NCBI GenBank assembly: GCA_048213135.1
Contig: PS015009.1
Coordinates: forward strand, 1,488,001 to 1,552,000
DNA: 64,000 nt
From: Reclinomonas americana ATCC 50394
Lineage: Eukaryota
Direction of reading: 5' to 3'
The translations under genes were made by a program, and so were the position numbers. This document shows positions 27,247-56,625 of this stretch, one piece after another; position 1 is the first letter of the stretch; each line of letters opens with the position of its first letter. Under the pieces are notes generated by a model that saw only the letters and a program-made list of their open reading frames with translations, did not search any database and was not told the DNA's origin.

Positions 27247-27323
27247 TCCTCCTTAGCTCAGTTGGTTAGAGCATCTGACTGTTAATCAGAGGGTCGCTGG
27301 TTCAAGTCCAGCAGGGGGAGCCA
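27247..27323 (+). tRNA. tRNA-Asn (anticodon GTT), CCA encoded
   Basis: Acceptor TCCTCCT/AGGGGGA, D-arm AGCTCAGTTGGTTAGAGC, anticodon arm TCTGA-CTGTTAA-TCAGA, T-arm GCTGG-TTCAAGT-CCAGC. Confidence 0.97.
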
Positions 27324-27600: not shown

Positions 27601-28935
27601 TTAAAAATAAATATTTGTATTGGGTAAACTACGTTTTAAATCTTCTACATCCTCTCTTCTAATTTTGGAGCATCCTTGCAGATATAACTCTTTAAGTTTC
27701 GTCAAAGATTTTAAAGCACCTAGATTTTCGACGTTGGCGCAACGTGTAAGTGCTAGGAATTCTAAATTTTTTAAATCTTTCAGCGGTTCAATATTAGTTA
27801 GATAGCCACATTCTCCTAAGTTCAATTCTTTTAGTTCAGTTAGGCCCTTTAAACCACGTATATCATTTAAAAAATAGCAGCTATTAAGATTTAAGAACCA
27901 CAGGTGCTTAAGTCCTGCGAGGCCATCTACATTTTTGAGACTTACACAGCGATGTGCATCCAATTGTTCTAATTTGGTGCATTGGTTCAACCCGTCAAGT
28001 GACACCAATTTTGAAACAGATACTGTCAATACCCTAAGTTTATTCAATCTTGTAAGAGCGTCGACATTATACAGGCAATTACACCCCTCCAGATCAAGCA
28101 TTTGCAGATTGGGAAGGTTCTGCAAACCATCTAGATTCCGAAGATTAAATGCTGATTTCATACTAAAAGCCTCCAAAGAGGTTAAAGCCCTCACAGCATC
28201 GATATTTTCCAGTGCGAAACATCCGTCAAGGTTCAGGCCTGTGAGATTTTTCAATTGGCTTATAGCCCTGATATCCGTCAGATGAAAGCTGTTCTTGATT
28301 TTTATTGTTGTTAATGAAGTAACCTTGTTTAAATCACCCAAAGTACTGAGACCCCATTGTCCGCGTTGTTCGAAGGTAGAACGAGGACGTGGATTAAAAG
28401 TGACTAGTAATGCGTCTGGTTGAAGAGTGACGAAATCAGGTAACAAAGCACGAAAGATGCTATCATCTAGTGTTGTAGCAGGGTCGATGATTATCGCCTT
28501 GTCTCTTTCGTTCCAACTAAGACCAAATTCCTCTATATGAGATATTGCAGCTTGCTTCTCTATTAGTTTTTTGTTGGCTGGATTATGAAAGAATTTGTAT
28601 TCATTGATTGGTTTTGGATAGTCAAACAAGGTCGAACTGGTAAGTACAAGACAGAACATCACAAACACAAATAATACTGTATAAGCCATAATCCAGCCGG
28701 CAATTTCCAAGGGTCTTTTACGTGATTTGGTCATCACCGAAAAAATATATAAAAGTATCATTAGCCCAAGCATAGTAAGCACGCTCAACAGTGGGATGTG
28801 GTAATTTTCAATTTTAAGCTGCTTCAGTATAGCGATAGCTGCTCCGAGACCCGCTATTCCAAGTGCATACTTCACTACTGGTACGCTTTTGATAGCTTCT
28901 TTTAGAATTGGGAAAGGGGGTTTAAATTCCATCAA
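27601..28935 (-). CDS. Membrane-anchored leucine-rich repeat protein
   Basis: Three N-terminal hydrophobic helices, then about ten LxxLxxLxLxxCxxL repeats. Confidence 0.85.
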   Translation of the reverse strand: MMEFKPPFPILKEAIKSVPVVKYALGIAGLGAAIAILKQLKIENYHIPLLSVLTMLGLMILLYIFSVMTKSRKRPLEIAGWIMAYTVLFVFVMFCLVLTSSTLFDYPKPINEYKFFHNPANKKLIEKQAAISHIEEFGLSWNERDKAIIIDPATTLDDSIFRALLPDFVTLQPDALLVTFNPRPRSTFEQRGQWGLSTLGDLNKVTSLTTIKIKNSFHLTDIRAISQLKNLTGLNLDGCFALENIDAVRALTSLEAFSMKSAFNLRNLDGLQNLPNLQMLDLEGCNCLYNVDALTRLNKLRVLTVSVSKLVSLDGLNQCTKLEQLDAHRCVSLKNVDGLAGLKHLWFLNLNSCYFLNDIRGLKGLTELKELNLGECGYLTNIEPLKDLKNLEFLALTRCANVENLGALKSLTKLKELYLQGCSKIRREDVEDLKRSLPNTNIYF

Positions 28936-45445: not shown

Positions 45446-46297
45446 ATGGCTATTCCGAAGCAGAAAGATAAAGCAAGACAATATGCGCCTTCAACCATCA
45501 GAAGGTTAGATACTCTTTCTGGTAATGAATGTGCCCATCCGGAGTGCATTAAGAAGCTGATAGCTGGCGACGGAATATCAATAATCAGCAAAATTTGCCA
45601 TATTGCTGCAGCCAGTAAAGATGGCCCCCGGTTTGATGAATCAATGACAGATGATGATAGAAGAAGTTTTGAAAATCTAATCTTGTTATGCGATGAGCAT
45701 CATGTAATAATTGATAATAAGCAAAATGAAAGTAAATACCCTACCCCATTACTAAAAAAATGGAAGAGTGACCATGAAACAAAAATTAGAGAGTTGACAG
45801 CTTCTAAGAACTTATTGTCCCGCCATCCTTTAGCATTGAATAAAGTAATCAATTCTATTGGAAAAAAAATGGATGAGATTTTGGACTTGCCGGAAGCTAC
45901 TAATGCCCCTAACCCGGATGAAAAAATAGCTCACAATAATGTTATTAGGTATGATTCTATTGTCAGGGAATTTGCAGCATATCAAGGGAAGCTCAATAAA
46001 ATATATGAAGAAATAGAGAAAGAAGGTTCTACCAAAAAGGAGCTTGTATTACACAATATAAAGAGCTTATATTATGACGTCAAAAAAGCATACCCAACTA
46101 TTGACGATGTAAGGAACAATGCAGACAATATATTTGATAAAGTAATTGAAAAAATTTGGGACAGCATGGAGAAAGCCCCAAACAAAATTGATGAGTTTGA
46201 CCAGGAAACTATTGATTTCAGCGTAATGATTGTTGTTGTAGATGCGTTTATGCGGTGTAATATTTTGGAGGAGCCACCTAAAATACAATCAGTATGA
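45446..46297 (+). CDS. Lamassu/ABC-three-component effector: HNH nuclease plus CTD (LmuA-like)
   Basis: SGNECAHPEC, ICHIAAAS..GPRF, NLILLCDEHHVIID; C-terminal DAFMRCNILEEP. Confidence 0.8.
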   Translation: MAIPKQKDKARQYAPSTIRRLDTLSGNECAHPECIKKLIAGDGISIISKICHIAAASKDGPRFDESMTDDDRRSFENLILLCDEHHVIIDNKQNESKYPTPLLKKWKSDHETKIRELTASKNLLSRHPLALNKVINSIGKKMDEILDLPEATNAPNPDEKIAHNNVIRYDSIVREFAAYQGKLNKIYEEIEKEGSTKKELVLHNIKSLYYDVKKAYPTIDDVRNNADNIFDKVIEKIWDSMEKAPNKIDEFDQETIDFSVMIVVVDAFMRCNILEEPPKIQSV

Positions 46298-46527
46298 TAA
46301 TAGATAAAAATGTAAATCCGGAAAGGGATTTGTATTATTTGGGAAGTATGCTCATTGATGTACTTTCACAAAAGAAGAACAAAGAAATTGATTACATAGA
46401 ACTTTATAAGGCATTCAGACAAAAGCAAGAAATTACTATAAATTTATATTCGCTAACTTTAGATTGGTTGTTTATATTAGGTTTGGTAGAGAAAGGCGAA
46501 AAGGGTAAAATTAAAAGATGTTTTTAA
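46294..46527 (+). CDS. ABC-three-component middle component (LmuC-like)
   Basis: 77 aa, overlaps both neighbours, LYYLG...LTLDWLFILGLV. Confidence 0.75.
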   Translation: MIIDKNVNPERDLYYLGSMLIDVLSQKKNKEIDYIELYKAFRQKQEITINLYSLTLDWLFILGLVEKGEKGKIKRCF

Positions 46528-48215
46528 AAGAGCTTACAATAGAAAACAAGGCAGGAGTAATCCGCACCATTGAGTTTCATAAGGGACTTAATTTGATCGT
46601 TGATGAAACTCCTGAAGACAATAAGAGGAGCACTGGCAATAATGTAGGCAAAACTACAGTTCTTCGGCTTGTAGATTTTTGCCTAGGTTCCAGCGGAAAG
46701 AATATTTATCAGGACTCAGAGTTTAAAGAGCGAGAAAATAGCACAATTAAAGATTTTCTAATTGACACAGAAACTACAATCATTTTAGATATTGTAGACG
46801 ATTTAGACTTCCCTACTGAATCTATAGTTATAAAAAAGAATTTTCTGAAGTACGCTAAAAAGACTCAGGAAATAAATGGAGAAAGCATAAAAGACGACAA
46901 AGAGTTTGATTTAAAACTAAAGGAGTTGATATTTAAAACGTCTGTAGAGAAGCCAACTTTTAAGCAAATCATTTCTAAAAATATTAGGGACGAAAAAAAT
47001 AAGCTAACAAATATTGTCAAGGTTCTAAATGCTTATACCAAAACTGAAGAATATGAAGCGTTGTTTCTTTTTTGGTTGGGTATTAATACTGACACTCACA
47101 ATCATAAGGAGTTATTAGGCAAGGAAAAAACACGGGAGGAAAATTTTCAGAAAAGATTAAAAAGAGAAGGAGAACTCTCCTTGATTGAACAGCAATTAGA
47201 ACTGGTTAATTCAAAAATAGAAGAATTACGTCAGGCGAAATTGAACTATAACTTCAACGAGAAATTTGATACTCAGATCAAGGAATTAAATGAAGTAAAA
47301 TTGCGTCTTTCACAACTCTCAACAGAGTTTAGCAGACTAAACATGAGAAGGGATTTGATTTCGGAGAGCAAGGTTGATTTAGAAAAGGAAAAAACAAACA
47401 TTAATGTAAATCAAATTGAGATGCTTTACAAGAAGGCGTCCAAGTTAATTCCGAGCATACAAGTTTCTTTCCAAGAAACAGTGCATTTTCATAATGACTT
47501 GATTAATGAAAAGATAAAATATATAACTAAAGAGTTACCGTCTCTTATTGAACAATTGCAATCTATAAGCAGAGAAGTTACCGGATTAAGAAAAAGAGAA
47601 AAACAATTGTCTGAATTCATAAGTGCGTCGGAGTATAGCGAAGATTATGAGCGTATATTACTTGAATTAAATAGTCTGTTTGAAAAAAAGGGAACTCTTG
47701 AGGAACGGAAACGATATTGGATAACTTCTAATCAAAAATTAGAACGGATTAATAGCGAACTAGAGTCTATAAACTCTGCTATAAACTCAAAAGATAGCTT
47801 GATTCAGAAAAGAGTAACGCTATTCAATAAATATTTTACTAAGATTTCAAGCGAACTATATGGGGAAGAATACTTATTAAGTACGCTGAAAAATGACAAA
47901 GGGTATGATTTGATTGTCACAAATATTGAAGGAAATCCTAGTACAGGAAAAAAGAAGGGGCAAATTGCAGCCTTTGATTTTGCGTATATTCTTTTTGCTG
48001 AAGAAATTGAAATAAAATTTGTTCACTTCATCATGCACGACCAGTTAGAAAACATGCACGATAATCAACTAAGTACAATTTTGGTTAACCTGGCAAACTC
48101 AATTAATTGCCAATTTATTCTACCAATAGTAAGAGATAAAATACCTTCCGATATAGACATTGAAAAATACATAGTATTAAGATTGTCTGAAAGTGATAAA
48201 CTATTTAAAGCATAA
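46518..48215 (+). CDS. SMC-like ABC ATPase, DUF2326 type (LmuB-like)
   Basis: FHKGLNLIV, Walker A GNNVGKTT, long coiled coil, STGKKKG, Walker B FIMHD. Confidence 0.85.
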   Translation: MFLKELTIENKAGVIRTIEFHKGLNLIVDETPEDNKRSTGNNVGKTTVLRLVDFCLGSSGKNIYQDSEFKERENSTIKDFLIDTETTIILDIVDDLDFPTESIVIKKNFLKYAKKTQEINGESIKDDKEFDLKLKELIFKTSVEKPTFKQIISKNIRDEKNKLTNIVKVLNAYTKTEEYEALFLFWLGINTDTHNHKELLGKEKTREENFQKRLKREGELSLIEQQLELVNSKIEELRQAKLNYNFNEKFDTQIKELNEVKLRLSQLSTEFSRLNMRRDLISESKVDLEKEKTNINVNQIEMLYKKASKLIPSIQVSFQETVHFHNDLINEKIKYITKELPSLIEQLQSISREVTGLRKREKQLSEFISASEYSEDYERILLELNSLFEKKGTLEERKRYWITSNQKLERINSELESINSAINSKDSLIQKRVTLFNKYFTKISSELYGEEYLLSTLKNDKGYDLIVTNIEGNPSTGKKKGQIAAFDFAYILFAEEIEIKFVHFIMHDQLENMHDNQLSTILVNLANSINCQFILPIVRDKIPSDIDIEKYIVLRLSESDKLFKA

Positions 48216-48389: not shown

Positions 48390-49223
48390 CTACCGCTTCA
48401 AGTGCAGCCATTGTGTTTCCTTATCCCATTGTCCGGGACGTGAGGTGAAAAGAGATGGTTTAAACCAAATGTTATTGAGTAAATTCAACAATCTGTTCGA
48501 TTTCAATAATCCCCCAGTATGTTCAGGTTCGGTTGCAATTGTTATTCCTTGTAACCGTTGAAATATCCATTGCATTAAAGAATTATTGTGGTTGAGCATT
48601 TCTTTAATTTTTTTTTCAGATAAGTAAGTATAATTGCCGCCCCCTCCTCCAACTTGTAAAGGGTTATTCAAAGTGAAAAAATCTAAATCAATATCGAAGT
48701 AAACATTGTTTTCTTCATTGGTTAAAAGACATTGTTCTAAATCCTGATACTTTTTAAATTTTTTTATCGTATGAATGTTGCCACATCTGTCTGTAATAAA
48801 TTCGTCTTCCCAATCACTTTCAAAAGAAGCTTGTCGACAATGCAGATATATGTCCCCAATGATATTTAAATAAGCCGCTGACATTATATGAGTATCATTC
48901 GCGCTTCTCAAATTAGCCCAGGAATATAATGCTACATCCTTATTATTGCTCAGCTCTAATTCTTTTAACCCTGCTTTTTCTTCATCAGTAGGGTAAACCA
49001 AATCCTGATGCCAATCTAAAGTAACCAAGCCTGGCGCATAACTTATACTATCTTCATTCATTAATTTTTGTGTCCATTTATTCCAAAAGAAAAAAGCATA
49101 CCTATGGTCATTAAAAATAGAAATTTCAATACTTTTTCTATCCGCATAAAATGGATGTGAAAGCAATTGACTTAATGAGCCGGGAGGTGTAACGTATTCA
49201 TCGCTGCGAAAATGTAAATCCAT
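48390..49223 (-). CDS. UPF0489-family (arginase/deacetylase-like) protein
   Basis: NDHRYAF, LDWHQDL, FDIDLDFF, ITIATEP. Confidence 0.7.
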   Translation of the reverse strand: MDLHFRSDEYVTPPGSLSQLLSHPFYADRKSIEISIFNDHRYAFFFWNKWTQKLMNEDSISYAPGLVTLDWHQDLVYPTDEEKAGLKELELSNNKDVALYSWANLRSANDTHIMSAAYLNIIGDIYLHCRQASFESDWEDEFITDRCGNIHTIKKFKKYQDLEQCLLTNEENNVYFDIDLDFFTLNNPLQVGGGGGNYTYLSEKKIKEMLNHNNSLMQWIFQRLQGITIATEPEHTGGLLKSNRLLNLLNNIWFKPSLFTSRPGQWDKETQWLHLKR

Positions 49224-49408
49224 TATGAGTAATTATTAATTCTATTTTGATAAGGTATTGTCAAGAAACTCATATCATATAAGTGGTTAGTCCCGCCGCC
49301 CTGGTTCATGGCCTCACGAGTCGGGAGCTCTAAAATTTTGCCTGAGAAGAAATACAACGACTTTCTCTACCAGAAGAAAGACTAAAAATTATAAAATCCT
49401 AACTGTAG

Positions 49409-50635
49409 CTATTTGAGTTTCAAAATATGCTCTTTAGATTTATTGAAAGTTTTCTTTTCCCAATCTGCTTCAGCTTTTTCATAAAATAATCGCTCGTATT
49501 GTTCAGAATCGCCCTGGCTCCCTAATGCAAGCAGACAATGTGAATATGTTGCATACAGCCATTTTAAATCTGAACGATTTTCGTACCCCTCTTCTTTAAA
49601 AACTTGTGATATGATTTCAATAATTGCCTCTCTTGTTTTTCGTGCTTCAATCTTAAAATATGTTTTTTCTTCACTGTCAGTTTCTTCTAAAGCCTTAAAA
49701 TCGCAGCATAATGCATAATTTTCACCAGTATAATAATCAGAATTTATCTGGAAACCTTTTCTATAATGTTTCATAGATCGATTTAGATATTCCATGTCGT
49801 TTTCCAAAAGCCACAAGTTTTTATAAATCGCTCCTGTGATACCTAATGTTTCAGGATCATTAGTGTCCTCTGGTTTCAAGAGATTAATTATTTGCAAAGC
49901 ATCTTGTAATGCGGTTCTTTCGGATGGTTTTTTGCTTTTATAAACAGCAAGGGCCCATTGCTGAATAAAGTAAGATTCATTTTCGACTTTCTCATGAGCC
50001 TTTTTCCACAAGTGCGCTGACTCTACAAAATTGCCCTTAATCATTTCTGATTTTGCGTGTTCCACCAAAGCAAATACATGCTTTTCTTTCTCTGCCAACT
50101 CTTTAATCATTTCCAAATAATCTTCTTTCGAAAGTTTATTTGGGGTTACAGATTTTAAATATTGAAAAAGCGGACTATCCACCTCGCTGGAATCTGTTAC
50201 CCTTTCAATTAATACTTTTAATGCTTTGACACATCTTTCAGCTTCTGTAGCGCCAATATCTTCACCCATGTGAGTGTAATGGAATATTTTATTATGATTG
50301 AGATCAAATGGAATTTTACTTTCATTTTCTTTCAAAATAATTGTAGAAAACGGTCTGGATGCATGACGTATACCTAGTTCATATAATGCATTCGGATTGA
50401 ATGTAGAGATATCAGCAATTACAATATCAGCGTGAATAAGCATTGCATACATACCTTTATCAATTACGCCACTCTCCTGAATTTCATCACCTCTTATACA
50501 TTCATAACCTGCAGCAATAACAGCGGGCTTAATAATGTTTGAGTATGTTTTATCTAAATCTAGGGTTTTACCAGTATCCGGATCAGTTTTTTTGCCATAC
50601 CCCATTATTATAAAACAAATTGGTTTATGTATCAT
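49409..50635 (-). CDS. DUF4071 protein: deoxyribohydrolase-like (ASK1-type) domain plus TPR array
   Basis: CFIIMGYGKK, IRGDEI, IADISTFNPNALYELGIRHA; TPR part DPETLGITGAIYK, YYTGENYA. Confidence 0.8.
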   Translation of the reverse strand: MIHKPICFIIMGYGKKTDPDTGKTLDLDKTYSNIIKPAVIAAGYECIRGDEIQESGVIDKGMYAMLIHADIVIADISTFNPNALYELGIRHASRPFSTIILKENESKIPFDLNHNKIFHYTHMGEDIGATEAERCVKALKVLIERVTDSSEVDSPLFQYLKSVTPNKLSKEDYLEMIKELAEKEKHVFALVEHAKSEMIKGNFVESAHLWKKAHEKVENESYFIQQWALAVYKSKKPSERTALQDALQIINLLKPEDTNDPETLGITGAIYKNLWLLENDMEYLNRSMKHYRKGFQINSDYYTGENYALCCDFKALEETDSEEKTYFKIEARKTREAIIEIISQVFKEEGYENRSDLKWLYATYSHCLLALGSQGDSEQYERLFYEKAEADWEKKTFNKSKEHILKLK

Positions 50636-50637
50636 GA

Positions 50638-51168
50638 TTAATTCTTTAAATTCTCAATAATTGTTTTGCTGTTAAAACCAATCACTCTGTCTGCCTGCTT
50701 ATACAAATCTTTTGGAACAAATGTTTTCCCCCATGGTCTAATTGCAATAATTTCCTTTCCCATTCTATCAGCTATTTCAATTTCTTTTTTTATCCAATAT
50801 CTGTTAGCGTAATCGCCCCCTAGAACTAAAACTTTGCTGCAACCTCGCATTTTATCTTCTATCCCTTTTTCAATCTGTTTCGCAGTAGAAGCATCTACAG
50901 GATTATCCCCTTCTATGCTATGATTGTAGAATTCAAACTTGTAATTCTTAAATTTTTTAATCAGGCTCCAGTAATCAGCATCATTTTTCCAGGAATGACT
51001 AATAAATATCCGTGGCCGAATTTTTGTTTTCTTATCCGGAGGGAATAAGTAATCAAACAGTGCTGACAGGAGGTGATACAATAATACTAGCCCACCAATA
51101 ACGATTATAAACCTAAGCCATTGGGGCATTTCTTCTTGCTGTGGTTGTTGTATGTTGAAAATATTCAT
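50638..51168 (-). CDS. TIR-domain protein (ThsB/DUF1863-like) with N-terminal TM helix
   Basis: TM residues about 18-42, RIFISHSW, WIKKEIEIA. Confidence 0.82.
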   Translation of the reverse strand: MNIFNIQQPQQEEMPQWLRFIIVIGGLVLLYHLLSALFDYLFPPDKKTKIRPRIFISHSWKNDADYWSLIKKFKNYKFEFYNHSIEGDNPVDASTAKQIEKGIEDKMRGCSKVLVLGGDYANRYWIKKEIEIADRMGKEIIAIRPWGKTFVPKDLYKQADRVIGFNSKTIIENLKN

Positions 51169-51177
51169 TTCAGATTT

Positions 51178-51768
51178 TTATTTGGGATATACTCTTGTTT
51201 TTGCAGATATAGGATGCGCTCTTTTATCAAATGCTGCATCTACATATTTATTAGGATCAGCAACAAAATCGTCCCATTTAACAAGAACACAATATCTTTC
51301 ATTTTCGCTCCAAGAACATTTATTATCGTCAGGAATGTAAAAATTGCAACTGAATTCTTTGATGGTTGTGCTATCATTAACTCCAACATAATTGTGACTT
51401 CCACCACAACTAGAACACGTATAGCCACCTTTGTATATCATGCCATACATATCTGGTAGAACTACTCCGAGAATGCCATTCTGTGTATTCCCACCACCAT
51501 GATATAAGGAGGCTTGAAGTTCACGTTTTATATACATCTGCTCTTCTTTCCCTCTGCTCTCAGCGCTGTAAGGGCCAATTAAGTGAATAGTAACAGTGGA
51601 ATCAGAAAGATGGTCTTCCCGAATTCTTTGCATTATGTAATCTTCATCATCCGAATCAATGGCTTCATTCAATGAACAATCAATCATGTCAATATCCAAG
51701 TCATTTTGGATAAAATTTTTGTAGGCAAAATCTTCTGTTTTGCATGAAATAAAACACCTGTGTCCCAT
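51178..51768 (-). CDS. TIR-domain protein (ThsB/DUF1863-like) with CxxC insert
   Basis: CFISCK, LSDSTVTIHLIG, YIKRELQASL, NGILGVVLP, CSSCGGSH. Confidence 0.82.
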   Translation of the reverse strand: MGHRCFISCKTEDFAYKNFIQNDLDIDMIDCSLNEAIDSDDEDYIMQRIREDHLSDSTVTIHLIGPYSAESRGKEEQMYIKRELQASLYHGGGNTQNGILGVVLPDMYGMIYKGGYTCSSCGGSHNYVGVNDSTTIKEFSCNFYIPDDNKCSWSENERYCVLVKWDDFVADPNKYVDAAFDKRAHPISAKTRVYPK

Positions 51769-51803
51769 GTTTATAGTTTTGGCTTTAAATGATATCGCTA
51801 TTT

Positions 51804-52155
51804 CTAATTTAGGTATGCTGAATTGCCTCTTCTTGCCAGCCACATTGTATGCTCCCTTGAAATAGCTTGTTCAGCTTCTTTAACAAATTCATCAAGTTCT
51901 GTATCATCCGTAACTTAAATTTTTGATTGACTCTCCTACTAAAAGAATAAAATGCTTTGAGTTTGCCAGTCGTTCACGAAGTACTCTTTTTATGTATTGC
52001 TCATTACTTGCATATGCAGACAATTCTTTTATGCTATGCGCATCATAAAAGTCGAAATCGACATGATCAAGTGCATTCCATCCTTTCATGAAAGCATAGG
52101 CCCACATATCCTTATCTCCATCGAAAGCAACATAAGTCTTATTCCTATAAGCCAT
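51804..52155 (-). pseudogene. Truncated ThsB-like TIR fused by apparent deletion to an orphan C-terminal gene tail
   Basis: MAYRNKTYVAFDGD...FYDAH...LRERLANSK.FILLVGE stops before the catalytic WE; orphan frame 51804-51914 reads ...EQAISREHTMWLARR. Confidence 0.7.
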
Positions 52156-52165
52156 GTTTTAAAGT

Positions 52166-52699
52166 TTATTTGTTAAGCCAATCCTTGAATTTAATTTTAG
52201 TACTATTAGGATAAAAGATATACCAGTCATTAGAATCTGCAACAGAAAATGAATAGGTACTTTCAATTCTACCATATATTCTACCATATTCTTGATCTGA
52301 CCAGATATTAGGGTCATTTGTCAAGGGGAGGATAGCAACATTTGCATAATTTATAATCCTATCTCCCAATCCTAATTCCCAAGGCATCCATTTAGAGTTT
52401 GTGCTATTAGGTGTAGCTAAAGTGATGAACTTTGTGCATTCCTTTATTCTGTCCCGTAGTTGTTGAGCTACAACATCATTTGTTTTGTCTTCTAATGTTT
52501 CATCGAGATAGTCAATATACACGGGTATGCCCATTCCTTTAAGAAACCTTACAACTCCATCAACATAATTTCTATCCATACGACGATAGGATAAGAAGAT
52601 TTTTTTTTCAAGATAAGTTCTGGTACTTATGCTTTTGTTTAAAGAGCTTGCTTTTGAAAAGGTTCTGCTACTAAGATTATTAAAAGTTAAAAACGCCAT
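52166..52699 (-). CDS. TIR-domain protein (TIR_2-like)
   Basis: IFLSYRRMD, VYIDY, SKWMPWELG with putative catalytic Glu. Confidence 0.87.
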   Translation of the reverse strand: MAFLTFNNLSSRTFSKASSLNKSISTRTYLEKKIFLSYRRMDRNYVDGVVRFLKGMGIPVYIDYLDETLEDKTNDVVAQQLRDRIKECTKFITLATPNSTNSKWMPWELGLGDRIINYANVAILPLTNDPNIWSDQEYGRIYGRIESTYSFSVADSNDWYIFYPNSTKIKFKDWLNK

Positions 52700-53121: not shown

Positions 53122-54057
53122 TCAGCGGTTTAGAAAAGCCTCTATTTTTTTCCTCGTGTACTCGGGCAGGTCAGTATTCTGGCATTCATAATTTGTTTTA
53201 GCAACGCCCATTTCCTCCAACCATTTTCCCAGGTAGGCCTTTATATAATCTTCGTCGTTTTTGTATTGCTTCGAAGGGCTTATTTCAAGCACCAGCACTT
53301 CCAGGTTTTGCAGGTCTTGCCGGGGGCTGATAAGGCCATAGTCATCTTTTTCGAATGCATCTCGCCAGGAGGGGTTATTGCGGAAGGGCTTTAACAGTTC
53401 AGGCAGTATATAGGTGGTTCTGTTGCCCTGCTTTTCCCTGGAGTCTTTGTGAAACAGGTAGCCATCCGTTAGTATTATTAAGATATTGCGGTAGCTGCCG
53501 GAAGCATCTACACAATACTGTTTTACATCGTTTTTAAAGAACCGCCAAACATCGGAGCCATCCCATTGCTTTTTGCCCTTGTTGTTGGCCAATACGATCT
53601 CGTAAATTTCCTGGGCGCTGTTGGCAAACCTGCTTTCCAGGCTATCGTAGGCTTCCTTTTTTTTCTTGTTGGCGCCCTCGCCGGTATAAGCAGACATATC
53701 GCAGGATAAATTTGTGGCAATGACATTTATCCGGTCATTTTCGGGAGTAGGTGTAAAGAATACTTTCACCCGGCCTTTTGCCTTATAGGCTCCCCGCTTT
53801 TCCATATCTTTTTTAAAAATAGCCGCTACGTTTTTTATGATGGCAATATCCCTTTCATAATGCTGTGGCGAGGCAGGGTTTACCTGCGGGTCTATCCTGT
53901 CGGACAAATCCCAAAGGATATTGATGTTGAGCTGGCGGTCGGTAGCTTTTACAGCAGTTGTATTGCTATCGTCAGCATCCTGTTTTTTTTCTGTTGAATC
54001 CGACGAGCAGGCACTTAAAAAAAGCAGGGCTATAAATAATGGGGCAATTGCTTTCAT
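53122..54057 (-). CDS. Hypothetical lipoprotein (vWA-like)
   Basis: Lipobox LSAC, ILWDLSDR, ILIILTDG (MIDAS-like pieces). Confidence 0.65.
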   Translation of the reverse strand: MKAIAPLFIALLFLSACSSDSTEKKQDADDSNTTAVKATDRQLNINILWDLSDRIDPQVNPASPQHYERDIAIIKNVAAIFKKDMEKRGAYKAKGRVKVFFTPTPENDRINVIATNLSCDMSAYTGEGANKKKKEAYDSLESRFANSAQEIYEIVLANNKGKKQWDGSDVWRFFKNDVKQYCVDASGSYRNILIILTDGYLFHKDSREKQGNRTTYILPELLKPFRNNPSWRDAFEKDDYGLISPRQDLQNLEVLVLEISPSKQYKNDEDYIKAYLGKWLEEMGVAKTNYECQNTDLPEYTRKKIEAFLNR

Positions 54058-54067
54058 GCTATACAAT

Positions 54068-55321
54068 TTAATTGGGGTTTAATACTGATTCAATAGTGGC
54101 TATTTTACCAACCAGGAAGTCTTCATATATTTTGTTGTGCTCGCTGCGGTTGTATTCCCTCCCTTCAGACAGCCAGGCATACCAACCCACCATAAATTGC
54201 GACAGCGCTTCTTTTACTGCCTTGGGCTGCACAATGGTGCCATCAATTACCTGCTTTAGCTTTTTCATTTCCACATTGTTTTTTTCGTTGGCTATTCGTA
54301 GCTCGGTAATGGTATTTTGATACTGGTTTATCTCCTGCTCATGGGTATGTATCTGCTCTCTTTTTGTTTTGATAGTGACCTTCACAATATCGAGCTTGGC
54401 ATGTGCTTCTATCACAAAATCGAACACAAAGCCCCAGATGAGGTACACCACAAACCCGGCAAAAATGACCAGCCAGAAGCCTACGCTGGCAAAGGCTAAG
54501 CCTACCGAAAAATCGGGGATATTGCCAGCCAGGTCATTCTCCTTTTTGATGTTGTATATTTTTTCGGTGATCTCGTAAGCGATAATAGCGTCGAAAATAA
54601 AAGTGATGACGAGTAGGGCTGCTATTTTAAAATATTTGCCGAGACCTTTCCCTTCCTGGAATTTATGGATGAGGTAACCCAGCCCGATAAACACAAAGGG
54701 AATGGTGAGTATAAAAATGAGTTCGGTAACGCCATCTTTCAATGCGTTGCCAATAGCATTGGCATCAAAAATTGCCTTGGTAACCACCACATCATCTGCT
54801 TTAAACTCTTTGAAAAAAGCGGAATAAGAAGCAGAGCTGTAAAAAATAAAAAGATAGATGGAGAGCAGCAGTAAGATAAACACGCCGATATAAAACCCGG
54901 CTTTACCTACATGCACGCCAGTGTACTGCTCCGGGTTCTTTCTTATGTCTGAAATTTCTTTTTGTAGTTCTTCTATCCTGGTTTTCTTAGCAGGTATCAG
55001 CTCTATATCGTACATGCTGATCTGGGATTTTATGCCTTCACTATGGCCCGTTAATTCCTGTAAGGCTACTTTGTAGGGCTTGCGCAGCTCTTCCTGCTTG
55101 TTTCCGTCTCTTTCCATTTCGGCCATATGCTGCTCATACACGGCATCCAGGCATATCCGCAGCCCTTCGGTACGCCCCTTCATCATTCCTGCCTGCACGA
55201 ACCCAAACCGGCGGTACGATACTTTTTCATCTGGCTGTTGCTCCGGGCTTACAGGAGGAGCCGGCTCCGTTTTTTGCGAGAACAAACCAGGTATTTTAAA
55301 TTTTGAAAGATCGAAAGCCAT
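54068..55321 (-). CDS. Membrane protein with four TM helices flanked by coiled coils
   Basis: Hydrophobic core residues about 140-305, heptad-rich flanks. Confidence 0.75.
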   Translation of the reverse strand: MAFDLSKFKIPGLFSQKTEPAPPVSPEQQPDEKVSYRRFGFVQAGMMKGRTEGLRICLDAVYEQHMAEMERDGNKQEELRKPYKVALQELTGHSEGIKSQISMYDIELIPAKKTRIEELQKEISDIRKNPEQYTGVHVGKAGFYIGVFILLLLSIYLFIFYSSASYSAFFKEFKADDVVVTKAIFDANAIGNALKDGVTELIFILTIPFVFIGLGYLIHKFQEGKGLGKYFKIAALLVITFIFDAIIAYEITEKIYNIKKENDLAGNIPDFSVGLAFASVGFWLVIFAGFVVYLIWGFVFDFVIEAHAKLDIVKVTIKTKREQIHTHEQEINQYQNTITELRIANEKNNVEMKKLKQVIDGTIVQPKAVKEALSQFMVGWYAWLSEGREYNRSEHNKIYEDFLVGKIATIESVLNPN

Positions 55322-55325
55322 AAGA

Positions 55326-55727
55326 TTAGTTGTTTTGAGTTACAAAATCGATGAGGTCGGTAGCAGGCATATTATCTTTTGCAGCCTCAATTAATAATTG
55401 CGCTATCAGGGGCGCATTGTTTTCTTCAAATTGAAATTTGCCACAAAGCTTTTCCAGTGTTGTTATTTCATGCGCATGCACCTGTCCGTCGGCCCATATC
55501 ATTTTTGCATAATCGTACAGGTATTCAATTTTTTCACTGAGCGTTTCCGGCAGGTACACTTCTCCGGCTGGGATCGGGTTCAGCAACATAGCGTCTATCT
55601 TTTCCCTGGGAAGGCCCCTTTCTTCCGCCAGCTTGTATAGTACGGCTATTTCTTTTTCATCAAATGCTGAATCGGCCAATGCCATGGAATACAGGTTGAG
55701 GAAATGTAACTGGAGTTCTGATGACAT
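55326..55727 (-). CDS. TerB-family protein
   Basis: MALADSAFDEKE and MIWADGQVHAHE repeats. Confidence 0.85.
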   Translation of the reverse strand: MSSELQLHFLNLYSMALADSAFDEKEIAVLYKLAEERGLPREKIDAMLLNPIPAGEVYLPETLSEKIEYLYDYAKMIWADGQVHAHEITTLEKLCGKFQFEENNAPLIAQLLIEAAKDNMPATDLIDFVTQNN

Positions 55728-55771
55728 AATGTATATAGGTTTATAAGCGTTATAAAATAGGGCTGCTGTAA

Positions 55772-56545
55772 TTATGTTTCGGGAACTACTGCCGGGTCGT
55801 CGGGCGCCGGGCTTTCTGCCTTATCCTCTTTTTTCTTTTTTGCTTTTACTTTGGAGGATTTGAATGGTTTTATGAGCGCCGGGTCCATCTTCTCTTCCAT
55901 GATCTTGTGCACGGCCGCCAGGATGATAGCATTATCACATTTTTCATTGTACCTGGCTTTGATCATCTTTTTAATACCATTCAATACCGCATCGGAACAG
56001 AGGATGCCGGCAATATTGTAAGGATCGGTGGCTTCGCATTTGTTCCAAAGGGGCTTGAACAGGTTTTTAACCACGCTTTCTTTATGCAGGTGCTGTAAGT
56101 GATTGGCTGCATTTTTTAAACCGGCAGCATCGCTCAGGTCTATCGCAAATATTAAGCGGGAGGAGATGGGCTGCTCAAATATGATCTTATAAAACTCAAA
56201 ATTTCTGCCGTTGGTAAGCAGGGCATATTCTATACCTTCATTAGCGCCATAGTTCACCGTTTGCCGCAAATGTTTTTCGGATAGCTGGAAGGAAAGGGCT
56301 TTTACTTCTACCAGGAAATGCCTTGTTTTATTGACCTGTATCACATAATCGGCATAGGTGCCTTTGATCATGTACTCTGTTTTTATTTCCTCCAGCTGCT
56401 TATAGCCCAGCACATCCGATAAAAAACGGTTGATCATGATCCTGGTGCCGGATTCATCCAGCTCTTTGATATTGCCGTCTAAAAATTCTTTCCGGTAAGC
56501 TTTGAGGGCGGTGAGGAGTTTTTGTTGCTTCAATGCTGTAAGCAT
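55772..56545 (-). CDS. Stand-alone HsdR N-terminal (PD-(D/E)XK-like) domain protein
   Basis: DESGTR, LGY, ADY, LVEVKA, QTVNYG, ALLTNG; no helicase domain. Confidence 0.85.
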   Translation of the reverse strand: MLTALKQQKLLTALKAYRKEFLDGNIKELDESGTRIMINRFLSDVLGYKQLEEIKTEYMIKGTYADYVIQVNKTRHFLVEVKALSFQLSEKHLRQTVNYGANEGIEYALLTNGRNFEFYKIIFEQPISSRLIFAIDLSDAAGLKNAANHLQHLHKESVVKNLFKPLWNKCEATDPYNIAGILCSDAVLNGIKKMIKARYNEKCDNAIILAAVHKIMEEKMDPALIKPFKSSKVKAKKKKEDKAESPAPDDPAVVPET

Positions 56546-56581
56546 GGTAGTTAGTTTTGAATGAGCGGATAGCTGTGTTTT

Positions 56582-56625
56582 CAAAACTAGTATGGGGACT
56601 TATCATTTTATTACGGCAAACCGTA
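56582..56625 (-). promoter_or_regulatory. TACGG-N4-CCGTA box plus -7 element (copy 3)
   Basis: TACGGCAAACCGTA 56612-56625, 22 bp, TAGTTTTG (minus) 56582-56589. Confidence 0.75.

Follow-up and report, generated by a model that had tools for sequence, protein, structure and literature searches.

Type VIII Thoeris systems combine a TIR protein, ThsB, with ThsI, an effector composed of a CMP hydrolase and a TPR domain, and signal through canonical cADPR (10.64898/2025.12.03.692087). The same signal is used by type VII systems, in which ThsB is paired with the SLATT effector ThsH, and the TIR proteins of both types convert NAD+ into canonical cADPR on infection (10.64898/2025.12.03.692087). Growth of cells carrying type VII or VIII systems was arrested by cADPR, and the operons block phages; type VIII was tested in E. 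coli, with systems from Pseudomonas and Yersinia enterocolitica, and is commonest in Pseudomonadota (10.64898/2025.12.03.692087). Islands with multiple ThsB genes and rare operons encoding both ThsH and ThsI are also known, and the TPR domain of ThsI is credited to a prediction by Burroughs and Aravind in 2020 (10.64898/2025.12.03.692087). In the BcTir/Tpr system of Bacillus cereus, signal synthesis was assigned to the effector, BcTpr, and BcTir was held to be inactive through K37 (10.1101/2023.05.26.542521). BcTpr alone depleted NAD+ and produced a cADPR isomer, the N82A and E86A substitutions in this protein abolished defence, cADPR was bound with a Kd of 1.9 µM, and a pull-down linked BcTir to BcTpr (10.1101/2023.05.26.542521).

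The operon studied here lies at positions 49409-52699 of a 64,000-nt stretch of DNA (the window). We read it, with a probability of about 0.7, as a type VIII Thoeris system that is the remnant of a combined type VII and VIII operon, in a defence island of a probable Bacteroidota chromosome. Three intact ThsB-type TIR genes retaining the catalytic Glu, an intact hydrolase-TPR gene and a deletion scar can all be read in the DNA, and membership of type VIII is supported by architecture, modelled fold and conserved residues. An earlier note on this DNA had presented the locus as a new Thoeris variant, but the system it belongs to had already been named and tested in E. coli.

Layout of the locus

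All five ORFs are co-directional on the - strand and tightly packed, as first described, with intergenic gaps of 10 nt (TIR-A/TIR-B), 135 nt (TIR-B/TIR-C), 9 nt (TIR-C/TIR-D) and 2 nt (TIR-D/effector). The earlier description of a four-TIR cluster holds for the number of TIR ORFs, but only three are complete, TIR-B being cut before its Glu. ThsB-type TIR genes adjoin a CMP-hydrolase and TPR effector, as in type VIII systems, and the presence of several ThsB-family sensors is also a frequent feature of Thoeris types I-IV. Unlike in those types, SIR2-SLOG, TM-macro, SLOG/ThcA and caspase effectors are all missing; searches with Pfam, PADLOC and NCBIfam found no SIR2-SLOG, macro or caspase effector among the 17 proteins encoded at 42.8-56.6 kb, in agreement with the earlier view that the cluster has no canonical Thoeris effector. 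PADLOC 2.0 and NCBIfam 20.0 gave no match named ThsI among these proteins. The locus probably sits in a low-GC defence island of a Bacteroidota chromosome, the host being suggested by the names attached to homologues. The UPF0489 gene at 48390-49223 was rejected as a member of the operon: it is separated by a 185-nt gap and had 0 blastp matches in 83 homologous loci. Searches for promoters and terminators gave 24 matches, as many as expected by chance (20.6 +/- 4.1), no exact repeat of the tRNA-Asn 3' end of at least 12 nt was found in the window, and no RNA sequencing runs containing the locus were listed.

The hydrolase-TPR effector

The thsI-like gene (49409..50635, - strand) encodes a 408-aa protein matching TPR-S (PF20308, E 1e-22; 80.8 bits, cut-off 27.6) and MAP3K_TRAF_bd (PF13281, E 5e-11). 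The latter family also goes by the name DUF4071, which is used in the source annotations of effector homologues. A deoxyribosyltransferase-fold domain of the MilB/CMP-hydrolase type occupies residues 1-160 and TPR-S residues 168-408, in keeping with the deoxyribohydrolase-TPR protein proposed at the outset. In the structural model (pLDDT 86.7), the top fold match of the N-terminal domain is MilB (4OHR; Z 12.5, rmsd 3.4, 137 aligned residues), but deoxyribosyltransferases and a STING TIR domain (12.0) come within 1 Z of it and are effectively level. Profile searches of the effector against PDB sequences returned no match to MilB and only weak matches to ASK1 (E 0.012). The effector keeps the motif N80-P81-N82...E86, these four residues being invariant in 72/72 aligned rows and the motif occurring in 118 of the best 120 homologues.

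BcTpr is likely to be an orthologue of this protein: it is of similar length (415 vs 408 aa), has a MilB-like N-terminal domain and carries I10, M11, N80, P81, N82 and E86 at the same numbers, as compared by numbering only. Residue 217 is V here and D in BcTpr (D217), again by number, and the register may differ. The window differs from the BcTir/Tpr system in having no BcTir orthologue. TIR-A and TIR-C fall in other clusters than BcTir, TIR-D matches the BcTir structure 8FZ9 only at E 0.086, and TIR-B does not match it. Orthologues of BcTir lie beside effector homologues in 3/69 loci (L019, L041 and L082); in L041, the orthologue (8FZ9, E 3e-51) immediately precedes an effector of 56% identity, and the locus also carries orthologues of TIR-A, TIR-C and TIR-D.

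These likenesses bear on a mechanism of the BcTir/Tpr type, in which the hydrolase-TPR protein would be the NADase and itself the source of the cADPR isomer, while the TIRs would serve in a complex with it as binding partners or regulators and would not synthesize the signal. The NAD+ loss and isomer production by BcTpr alone, with their dependence on N82 and E86, the cADPR binding and the BcTir-BcTpr pull-down favour such a mechanism (10.1101/2023.05.26.542521), and the same residues, by number, occur in the 408-aa effector. We nevertheless consider it rather unlikely here. The TIRs of type VIII systems gave phage-dependent cADPR when expressed alone (10.64898/2025.12.03.692087), and the Glu is kept in 3/3 intact TIRs of the operon, which argues against TIRs as non-synthases. 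The BcTir/Tpr model also rests on the inactivity of BcTir through K37, yet BcTir E82 (8FZ9) shares the canonical TIR Glu column with 33/33 aligned neighbour TIRs and with ThsB (6LHY), and BcTir therefore looks catalytically intact.

The intact TIR proteins

TIR-A (52166..52699, - strand; 177 aa) carries the PWELG motif and matches PF13676 (E 8.6e-10), as expected of the TIR_2-like protein first proposed, and the PADLOC ThsB model (PDLC00436, E 2.9e-42). Homologues of at least 45% identity occur in 3/69 effector loci. TIR-C (51178..51768, - strand; 196 aa) matches PF08937 (E 8.1e-8) and has the CxxC insert previously noticed (C118xxC121), found as CxxC in 10/12 aligned orthologues and as CxC in the other two; together with one further conserved Cys, it is possibly a Zn site. 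Orthologues of TIR-C occur in 14/69 effector loci. Its start was set at the ATG at 51768, because the 135-nt gap upstream holds SLATT 3' codons and orthologues begin at that ATG; the GTG at 51843, inside the SLATT remnant, was rejected. TIR-D (50638..51168, - strand; 176 aa; PF08937, E 7.1e-17) has a single predicted N-terminal membrane helix (residues 20-38, hydropathy 2.42) followed by a basic linker, matching the membrane-anchored ThsB-like TIR of the earlier note. Among 57 TIR-D homologues, the helix is present in 44 and the Glu in all 57. The catalytic Glu is E108 in TIR-A, E83 in TIR-C and E129 in TIR-D. Compared with the tested type VIII systems, the operon stands out by having three intact TIRs from divergent subfamilies, of which TIR-D is membrane-anchored and TIR-C Cys-bearing, and also by its probable Bacteroidota host and deletion scar.

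Homologous loci

A TIR gene lies within 4 kb of the effector homologue in 62/67 de-duplicated loci, a recurrent tie between DUF4071-type genes and TIRs whose absence would, according to the earlier note, have refuted its proposal. All 5 loci without such a gene have a flank of <1 kb, and where the flanks extend for at least 2.5 kb on the upstream side and at least 1.5 kb on the downstream side, a TIR is linked in 21/21 loci; an adjacent co-directional TIR was present in 5/5 named plasmid loci inspected. The commonest partner TIR of the clade, a protein of 134 aa found in 44/69 loci, is absent from the window. SLATT genes occur within 4 kb in 10/67 loci, and additionally in L085, as in the published operons of types VII and VIII. 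Of 200 neighbour ORFs, none encoded a macro, SLOG/STALD or caspase domain. One SIR2_2 domain was seen in L059, in a separate gene run. Among 22 distant TPR-S relatives with flanks of about 1.5 kb, a custom HMM detected no TIR and Pfam one (L105); the linkage is therefore not true of the whole DUF4071 family. The close effector clade was present in 1/400 sampled Gammaproteobacteria genomes, that one being the centre of the search, which speaks against the type VIII assignment given the prevalence of that type in Pseudomonadota. A GTDB pattern scan with the effector protein alone gave 3 loci.

TIR-B and the lost SLATT effector

TIR-B (51904..52155, - strand) is a pseudogene, the 5' half of a thsB-like gene, as the earlier description of a truncated ThsB-like TIR implied. 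Its 83-aa ORF (PF08937, E 1.6e-10) consists of 80 genuine codons followed by 3 out-of-frame codons and a stop, covers only positions 1-80 of a 167-position PADLOC model and stops 7 residues short of the catalytic Glu, expected at 87; residues 1-80 are 94% identical to the intact 161-aa proteins P0121 and P0122. At 51914..51916 (- strand), similarity flips from TIR-B to SLATT, about 2 nt (AG) at this junction appearing to fit either side. Beyond it, 36 codons and a stop (51804..51914, - strand) form the 3' remnant of a thsH-like gene for a SLATT_3+SLATT_1 membrane effector, with no start and out of frame with TIR-B. The encoded residues are identical at 35/36 positions to the C-terminus of L005:3-773, a SLATT protein matching PF18181 and PF18184, and 82% identical to L073. 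This remnant, in the 135-nt gap, had been overlooked by the earlier note. Sized from intact relatives, the lost DNA amounts to about 1.02-1.06 kb, comprising the 3' half of TIR-B and about 260-270 SLATT codons. The ancestral locus was a type VII and VIII hybrid: a SLATT gene, the effector kind of type VII, stood between TIR-B and TIR-C, and only 36 of its codons are left. No intact SLATT effector adjoining ThsB is present at the locus and, with only the last 36 codons remaining, there is no functional ThsH here.

The nature of the lost gene bears directly on the possibility that this was a canonical Thoeris system of type I, II or IV whose ThsA went in the deletion, the TPR protein being an accessory. 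The resemblance of TIR-B to ThsB models and to PDB 8V6T (E 1e-14) would fit such a history, but the sequence beyond the junction is the 3' end of SLATT, which makes SLATT (ThsH, type VII), and not ThsA, the effector that was lost. The missing 1 kb or so is wholly filled by the rest of TIR-B and SLATT, if these were adjacent, and the 200 neighbour ORFs hold no ThsA-type domain apart from the single SIR2_2 of L059. That the deleted DNA carried a known ThsA, the case the earlier note had named as fatal to its proposal, was rejected because the remnant is SLATT, and this history is highly improbable.

An assembly error, with the organism having an intact four-TIR operon of types VII and VIII and the deletion being artefactual, is very unlikely. 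In its favour, the source assembly (G000) comprises 108 Mb in 16,441 contigs; one DNA sequencing run, in which the share was small, gave a single contig of 253 nt that matches 50870-51122 exactly but no sequence at the junction, and is thus uninformative on the deletion. However, an intact copy of SLATT or TIR-B was found nowhere else in that assembly, and the junction is internal to a contig of >1.5 Mb, with no long repeat on inspection.

The deletion could alternatively have left a decaying relic, having taken a working TIR-B/SLATT (type VII) pair, with what remains forming no functional circuit. The loss of about 1 kb and the missing 134-aa TIR agree with this, as does the leaning of TIR-C orthologues towards SLATT loci (5/14 vs 6/55; Fisher p 0.04, relatedness ignored). 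The four remaining genes are nevertheless full length with intact catalytic residues, their DNA is still 82% identical to that of L005 across 2.5 kb, and the intergenic DNA ahead of TIR-C is kept; L005 likewise lacks the 134-aa TIR, within its 76-nt downstream flank, and L026 has no TIR other than TIR-C next to its effector. A relic is accordingly quite unlikely.

Proposed mechanism

In a functioning type VIII system, TIR-A, TIR-C and TIR-D would each sense a different phage cue, TIR-D at the inner membrane with its TIR domain in the cytoplasm, as the positive-inside rule predicts, and at least one of the three would make cADPR. This cADPR would bind the TPR-S/hydrolase protein and free the N-glycosidase site at Glu86, which might then cleave a nucleotide of the cell pool, with NAD+ or NMP/dNMP as candidates, arresting the infected cell. 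In the ancestral operon, the same signal would also have driven a second, membrane-breaching SLATT effector, since lost. The earlier proposal that the hydrolase-TPR protein receives a TIR-made, NAD-derived signal matches the published type VIII model.

The relationship of DUF4071 to the N-terminal region of ASK1/MAP3K5, also put forward earlier, is borne out by the model: the TPR region aligns to the ASK1 regulatory region (5ULM) with Z 19.7 over 226 residues, and the whole effector to ASK1 95-525 with Z 14.7 and rmsd 13.2 (Foldseek E 1e-5; PDB 5ULM, 8QGY). Unlike ASK1, the effector has no PH or kinase domain, and identity is 13-15%. The homology is already built into Pfam PF13281 and was reportedly described by Burroughs and Aravind in 2020. 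A more far-reaching proposal, which we regard as unlikely, is that TIR-D represents a conserved membrane-anchored ThsB family sensing phage events at the inner membrane and making cADPR that gates the effector; if true, TIR-D-type cues might include injection of the phage genome or a membrane protein of the phage. On that proposal, the effector being a structural bacterial counterpart of the ASK1 N-terminal regulatory region, its cADPR site would offer a testable lead that a nucleotide-sensing pocket was retained in ASK1. Neither such a family nor the pocket is stated in the two preprints or in literature listings, although Burroughs and Aravind (2020) may cover them.

Significance

The locus adds a probable Bacteroidota, multi-sensor example to type VIII Thoeris and is of modest significance. 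It brings together three separate names, DUF4071/TPR-S proteins, BcTpr and ThsI; a literature search found no paper joining Thoeris and DUF4071. The canonical Glu of BcTir, E82, bears on the conflict between the preprints over which protein makes the signal, and the intact 408-aa protein could serve to find the ThsI substrate. The conserved membrane-anchored ThsB family and the Cys-bearing ThsB are small additions. The operon offers a snapshot of a two-effector system of types VII and VIII shedding one of its effectors, a loss that lends support to the idea that ThsH and ThsI can replace each other in reading a single signal.

Operon structure and setting

The TIR operon (49409–52699) consists of five ORFs, all on the minus strand and separated by gaps of 10, 135, 9 and 2 nt, with a GC content of 34% versus 49% in window 1–27000. 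The first four ORFs, TIR-A (52166–52699), TIR-B (51904–52155), TIR-C (51178–51768) and TIR-D (50638–51168), match TIR/ThsB, and the fifth, encoding the 408-aa effector (49409–50635), matches TPR-S and MAP3K_TRAF_bd (Pfam, PADLOC). An earlier note had described a four-TIR cluster with a DUF4071 partner; all five ORFs are present, with two corrections: TIR-B stops before its conserved Glu, leaving three complete TIRs, and the 135-nt gap holds a SLATT remnant that the note missed. Intact 161-aa proteins share 94% identity with codons 1–80 of TIR-B, and at the junction 51916/51914 the similarity passes to the end of a SLATT_3+SLATT_1 gene. Its final 36 codons agree at 35 positions with those of L005, a locus with a near relative of the operon (82% DNA identity to window 49397–51915). 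The remnant has no start and its frame differs from that of TIR-B. Assuming that TIR-B and the SLATT gene adjoined, about 1.02–1.06 kb of DNA was lost, and neither the missing part of TIR-B nor that of the SLATT gene was found elsewhere in the assembly; that the junction is an assembly error is very unlikely. The ancestral order TIR-A, TIR-B, SLATT, TIR-C, TIR-D, effector is a reconstruction, because the whole order stands in no single intact locus read. No ThsA-type domain was found in 17 window proteins (42.8–56.6 kb), in agreement with the claim that a canonical Thoeris effector is lacking, and the loss of ThsA in the deletion, an objection the note had anticipated, is extremely improbable, the SLATT remnant being there instead.

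Convergent with the operon is a three-gene ABC-3C/Lamassu-like system (45446–48215, plus strand) encoding endonuclease-CTD10 (283 aa), MC6 (77 aa) and a DUF2326 SMC-like protein (565 aa), with PADLOC matches to PDC-M68A/B and LmuB. A UPF0489 gene (48390–49223, minus strand), 185 nt downstream of the effector, gives a weak peptide-arginase match and was not found in the 83 homologous loci searched. The gene run at 53122–56584 (minus strand), encoding HSDR_N_2 nuclease-like, TerB, 417-aa multi-TM coiled-coil and 314-aa probable lipoprotein products, may be another module for stress response or defence. A tRNA-Asn gene (27247–27323, plus strand), where GC steps from 49% to 42%, is a possible island edge; its 3′ end has no exact repeat of at least 12 nt within the window, and the ORF after it (27601–28935) looks, by eye, like a membrane-anchored leucine-rich-repeat protein.

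Effector and TIR proteins

The search retained 1,847 effector homologues out of 5,673 candidates, the top 120 being 56–87% identical and mostly about 400–415 aa long. In the AlphaFold model of the effector (pLDDT 86.7, 51-row alignment), an alpha/beta N-domain is followed by 12 helices towards the C-terminus. When the N-domain alone was compared by structure, MilB took first place (Z 12.5, rmsd 3.4 over 137 aligned positions) in a tie, at most 1 Z apart, with the TIR domain of a STING protein and with deoxyribosyltransferases; sequence profile searches with the effector did not reach MilB. The TPR part resembles the central regulatory region of ASK1 (Z 19.7), and ASK1 is also the top Foldseek match of the whole model (E 1e-5). 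Residues N80, P81, N82 and E86 are invariant (72/72 rows).

A recent preprint (bioRxiv 10.64898/2025.12.03.692087) describes type VII Thoeris, with the SLATT effector ThsH, and type VIII, with ThsI, a CMP hydrolase with TPR. It reports defence against phage, phage-dependent canonical cADPR and demonstrated cADPR toxicity, rare ThsH+ThsI operons and islands containing six or seven ThsB genes; what ThsI acts on and where cADPR binds are given as hypotheses. The Thoeris-like interpretation of the earlier note was right, but it is already published there. In a second preprint (bioRxiv 10.1101/2023.05.26.542521), BcTpr of Bacillus cereus is a 415-aa protein with a MilB-like N-terminus, in which N82A and E86A abolished defence; its I10, M11, N80, P81, N82 and E86 recur, matched by number, in the window effector. 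The cADPR isomer was attributed to BcTpr, with BcTir held inactive through K37, and the effector might likewise make the signal itself. However, alignment of BcTir (PDB 8FZ9) with L041:2995–3405, from a locus where a BcTir orthologue (E 3e-51) adjoins an effector homologue, places BcTir E82 in the canonical TIR Glu column, contrary to K37 as the degenerate catalytic position; this favours the Thoeris model, and an effector-made signal is unlikely.

An alignment that includes 33 TIRs from the neighbourhoods of related loci shows the conserved Glu as E108 in TIR-A, E83 in TIR-C and E129 in TIR-D, and TIR-B ends 7 residues before it. TIR-D has a hydrophobic helix (residues 20–38), found in 44 of 57 homologues, all 57 of which have the Glu. 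That the operon is a non-functional relic is quite unlikely. The CxxC of TIR-C is present in 10/12 aligned orthologues; a frameshift at L002:6387–6984 divides the orthologue there into ORFs of 130 and 78 aa.

Neighbourhoods of effector homologues

The neighbourhood set comprised the best 80 of 520 metagenome matches and three genome loci, collapsed at 90% identity. A co-directional TIR lies within 4 kb in 62 of 67 representatives, upholding the recurrent linkage proposed earlier; at least two TIRs occur in 29, at least three in seven and a SLATT gene in 10. The TIR HMM was derived from these very loci, and the representatives were confirmed independently by Pfam. All 21 long-flank representatives have a TIR, and each of the five TIR-less ones has a flank below 1 kb. 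Two groups excluded from this count both have TIRs, one (L085, not L086) with SLATT, giving 64/69 and 11/69 when included. A TIR also adjoins the effector homologue in 5/5 plasmid records inspected, out of 77. Pfam was also applied to 200 ORFs neighbouring the effector homologues, one from each cluster, all on the same strand, mostly at least 95 aa long and mostly within −3.5/+2.6 kb. It detected no domain of the macro, SLOG/STALD or caspase type, and its single SIR2_2 match falls in a separate run of genes. Twenty-two distant TPR-S relatives, drawn from 401 Bacteroidota-side and 400 Gammaproteobacteria-side genomes, had no TIR in flanks of about 1.5 kb by our HMM and one by Pfam, so the linkage belongs to the ~410-aa clade. 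The picture is not a simple one: the 134-aa TIR that is the usual partner (44/69 loci) is missing from the window operon, and orthologues of TIR-A (3), TIR-B (1) and TIR-D (2) are rare among the 69 loci; TIR-C has 14.

Several loci carry other genes. Genes for 5-hmdU-kinase-helical and Nmad2 precede the TIR/effector genes at L002:1541–6376, L023:1650–3735 and upstream in L079, with thymidylate synthase also in the run of L002 and L079, so that base-modification genes share a run with the TIR/effector genes in these three loci. QueC and 8-oxoguanine-glycosylase-like genes (L056:1525–3789, L069:6141–7920) recall the Cap9/10/11-associated Thoeris operons described in 10.64898/2025.12.03.692087. 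A patatin gene adjoins the effector in L019, L023, L027 and L066. With no TIR nearby, one distant hydrolase-TPR-S relative is fused to DUF4231/SLATT (L112:1417–3513), and others (L091, L094, L096; L088, L089) have abhydrolase-TPR-S or peptidase M3 partners.

Proposed mechanism

Every defining feature tested (gene content, folds, residues) was found, and on sequence and modelled structure the locus would work like type VIII Thoeris. At a probability of roughly 0.7, TIR-A, -C and/or -D would sense infection and make cADPR, unlocking a Glu86 glycosidase that would destroy a nucleotide pool, the SLATT arm of the ancestral operon having gone. The gene content, folds, residues and deletion in this reading are observed here; signal identity and toxicity would carry over from other members, and the substrate and the sensing step are inferred. 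The only leads of some promise here are the membrane-anchored ThsB family represented by TIR-D and the link to ASK1.
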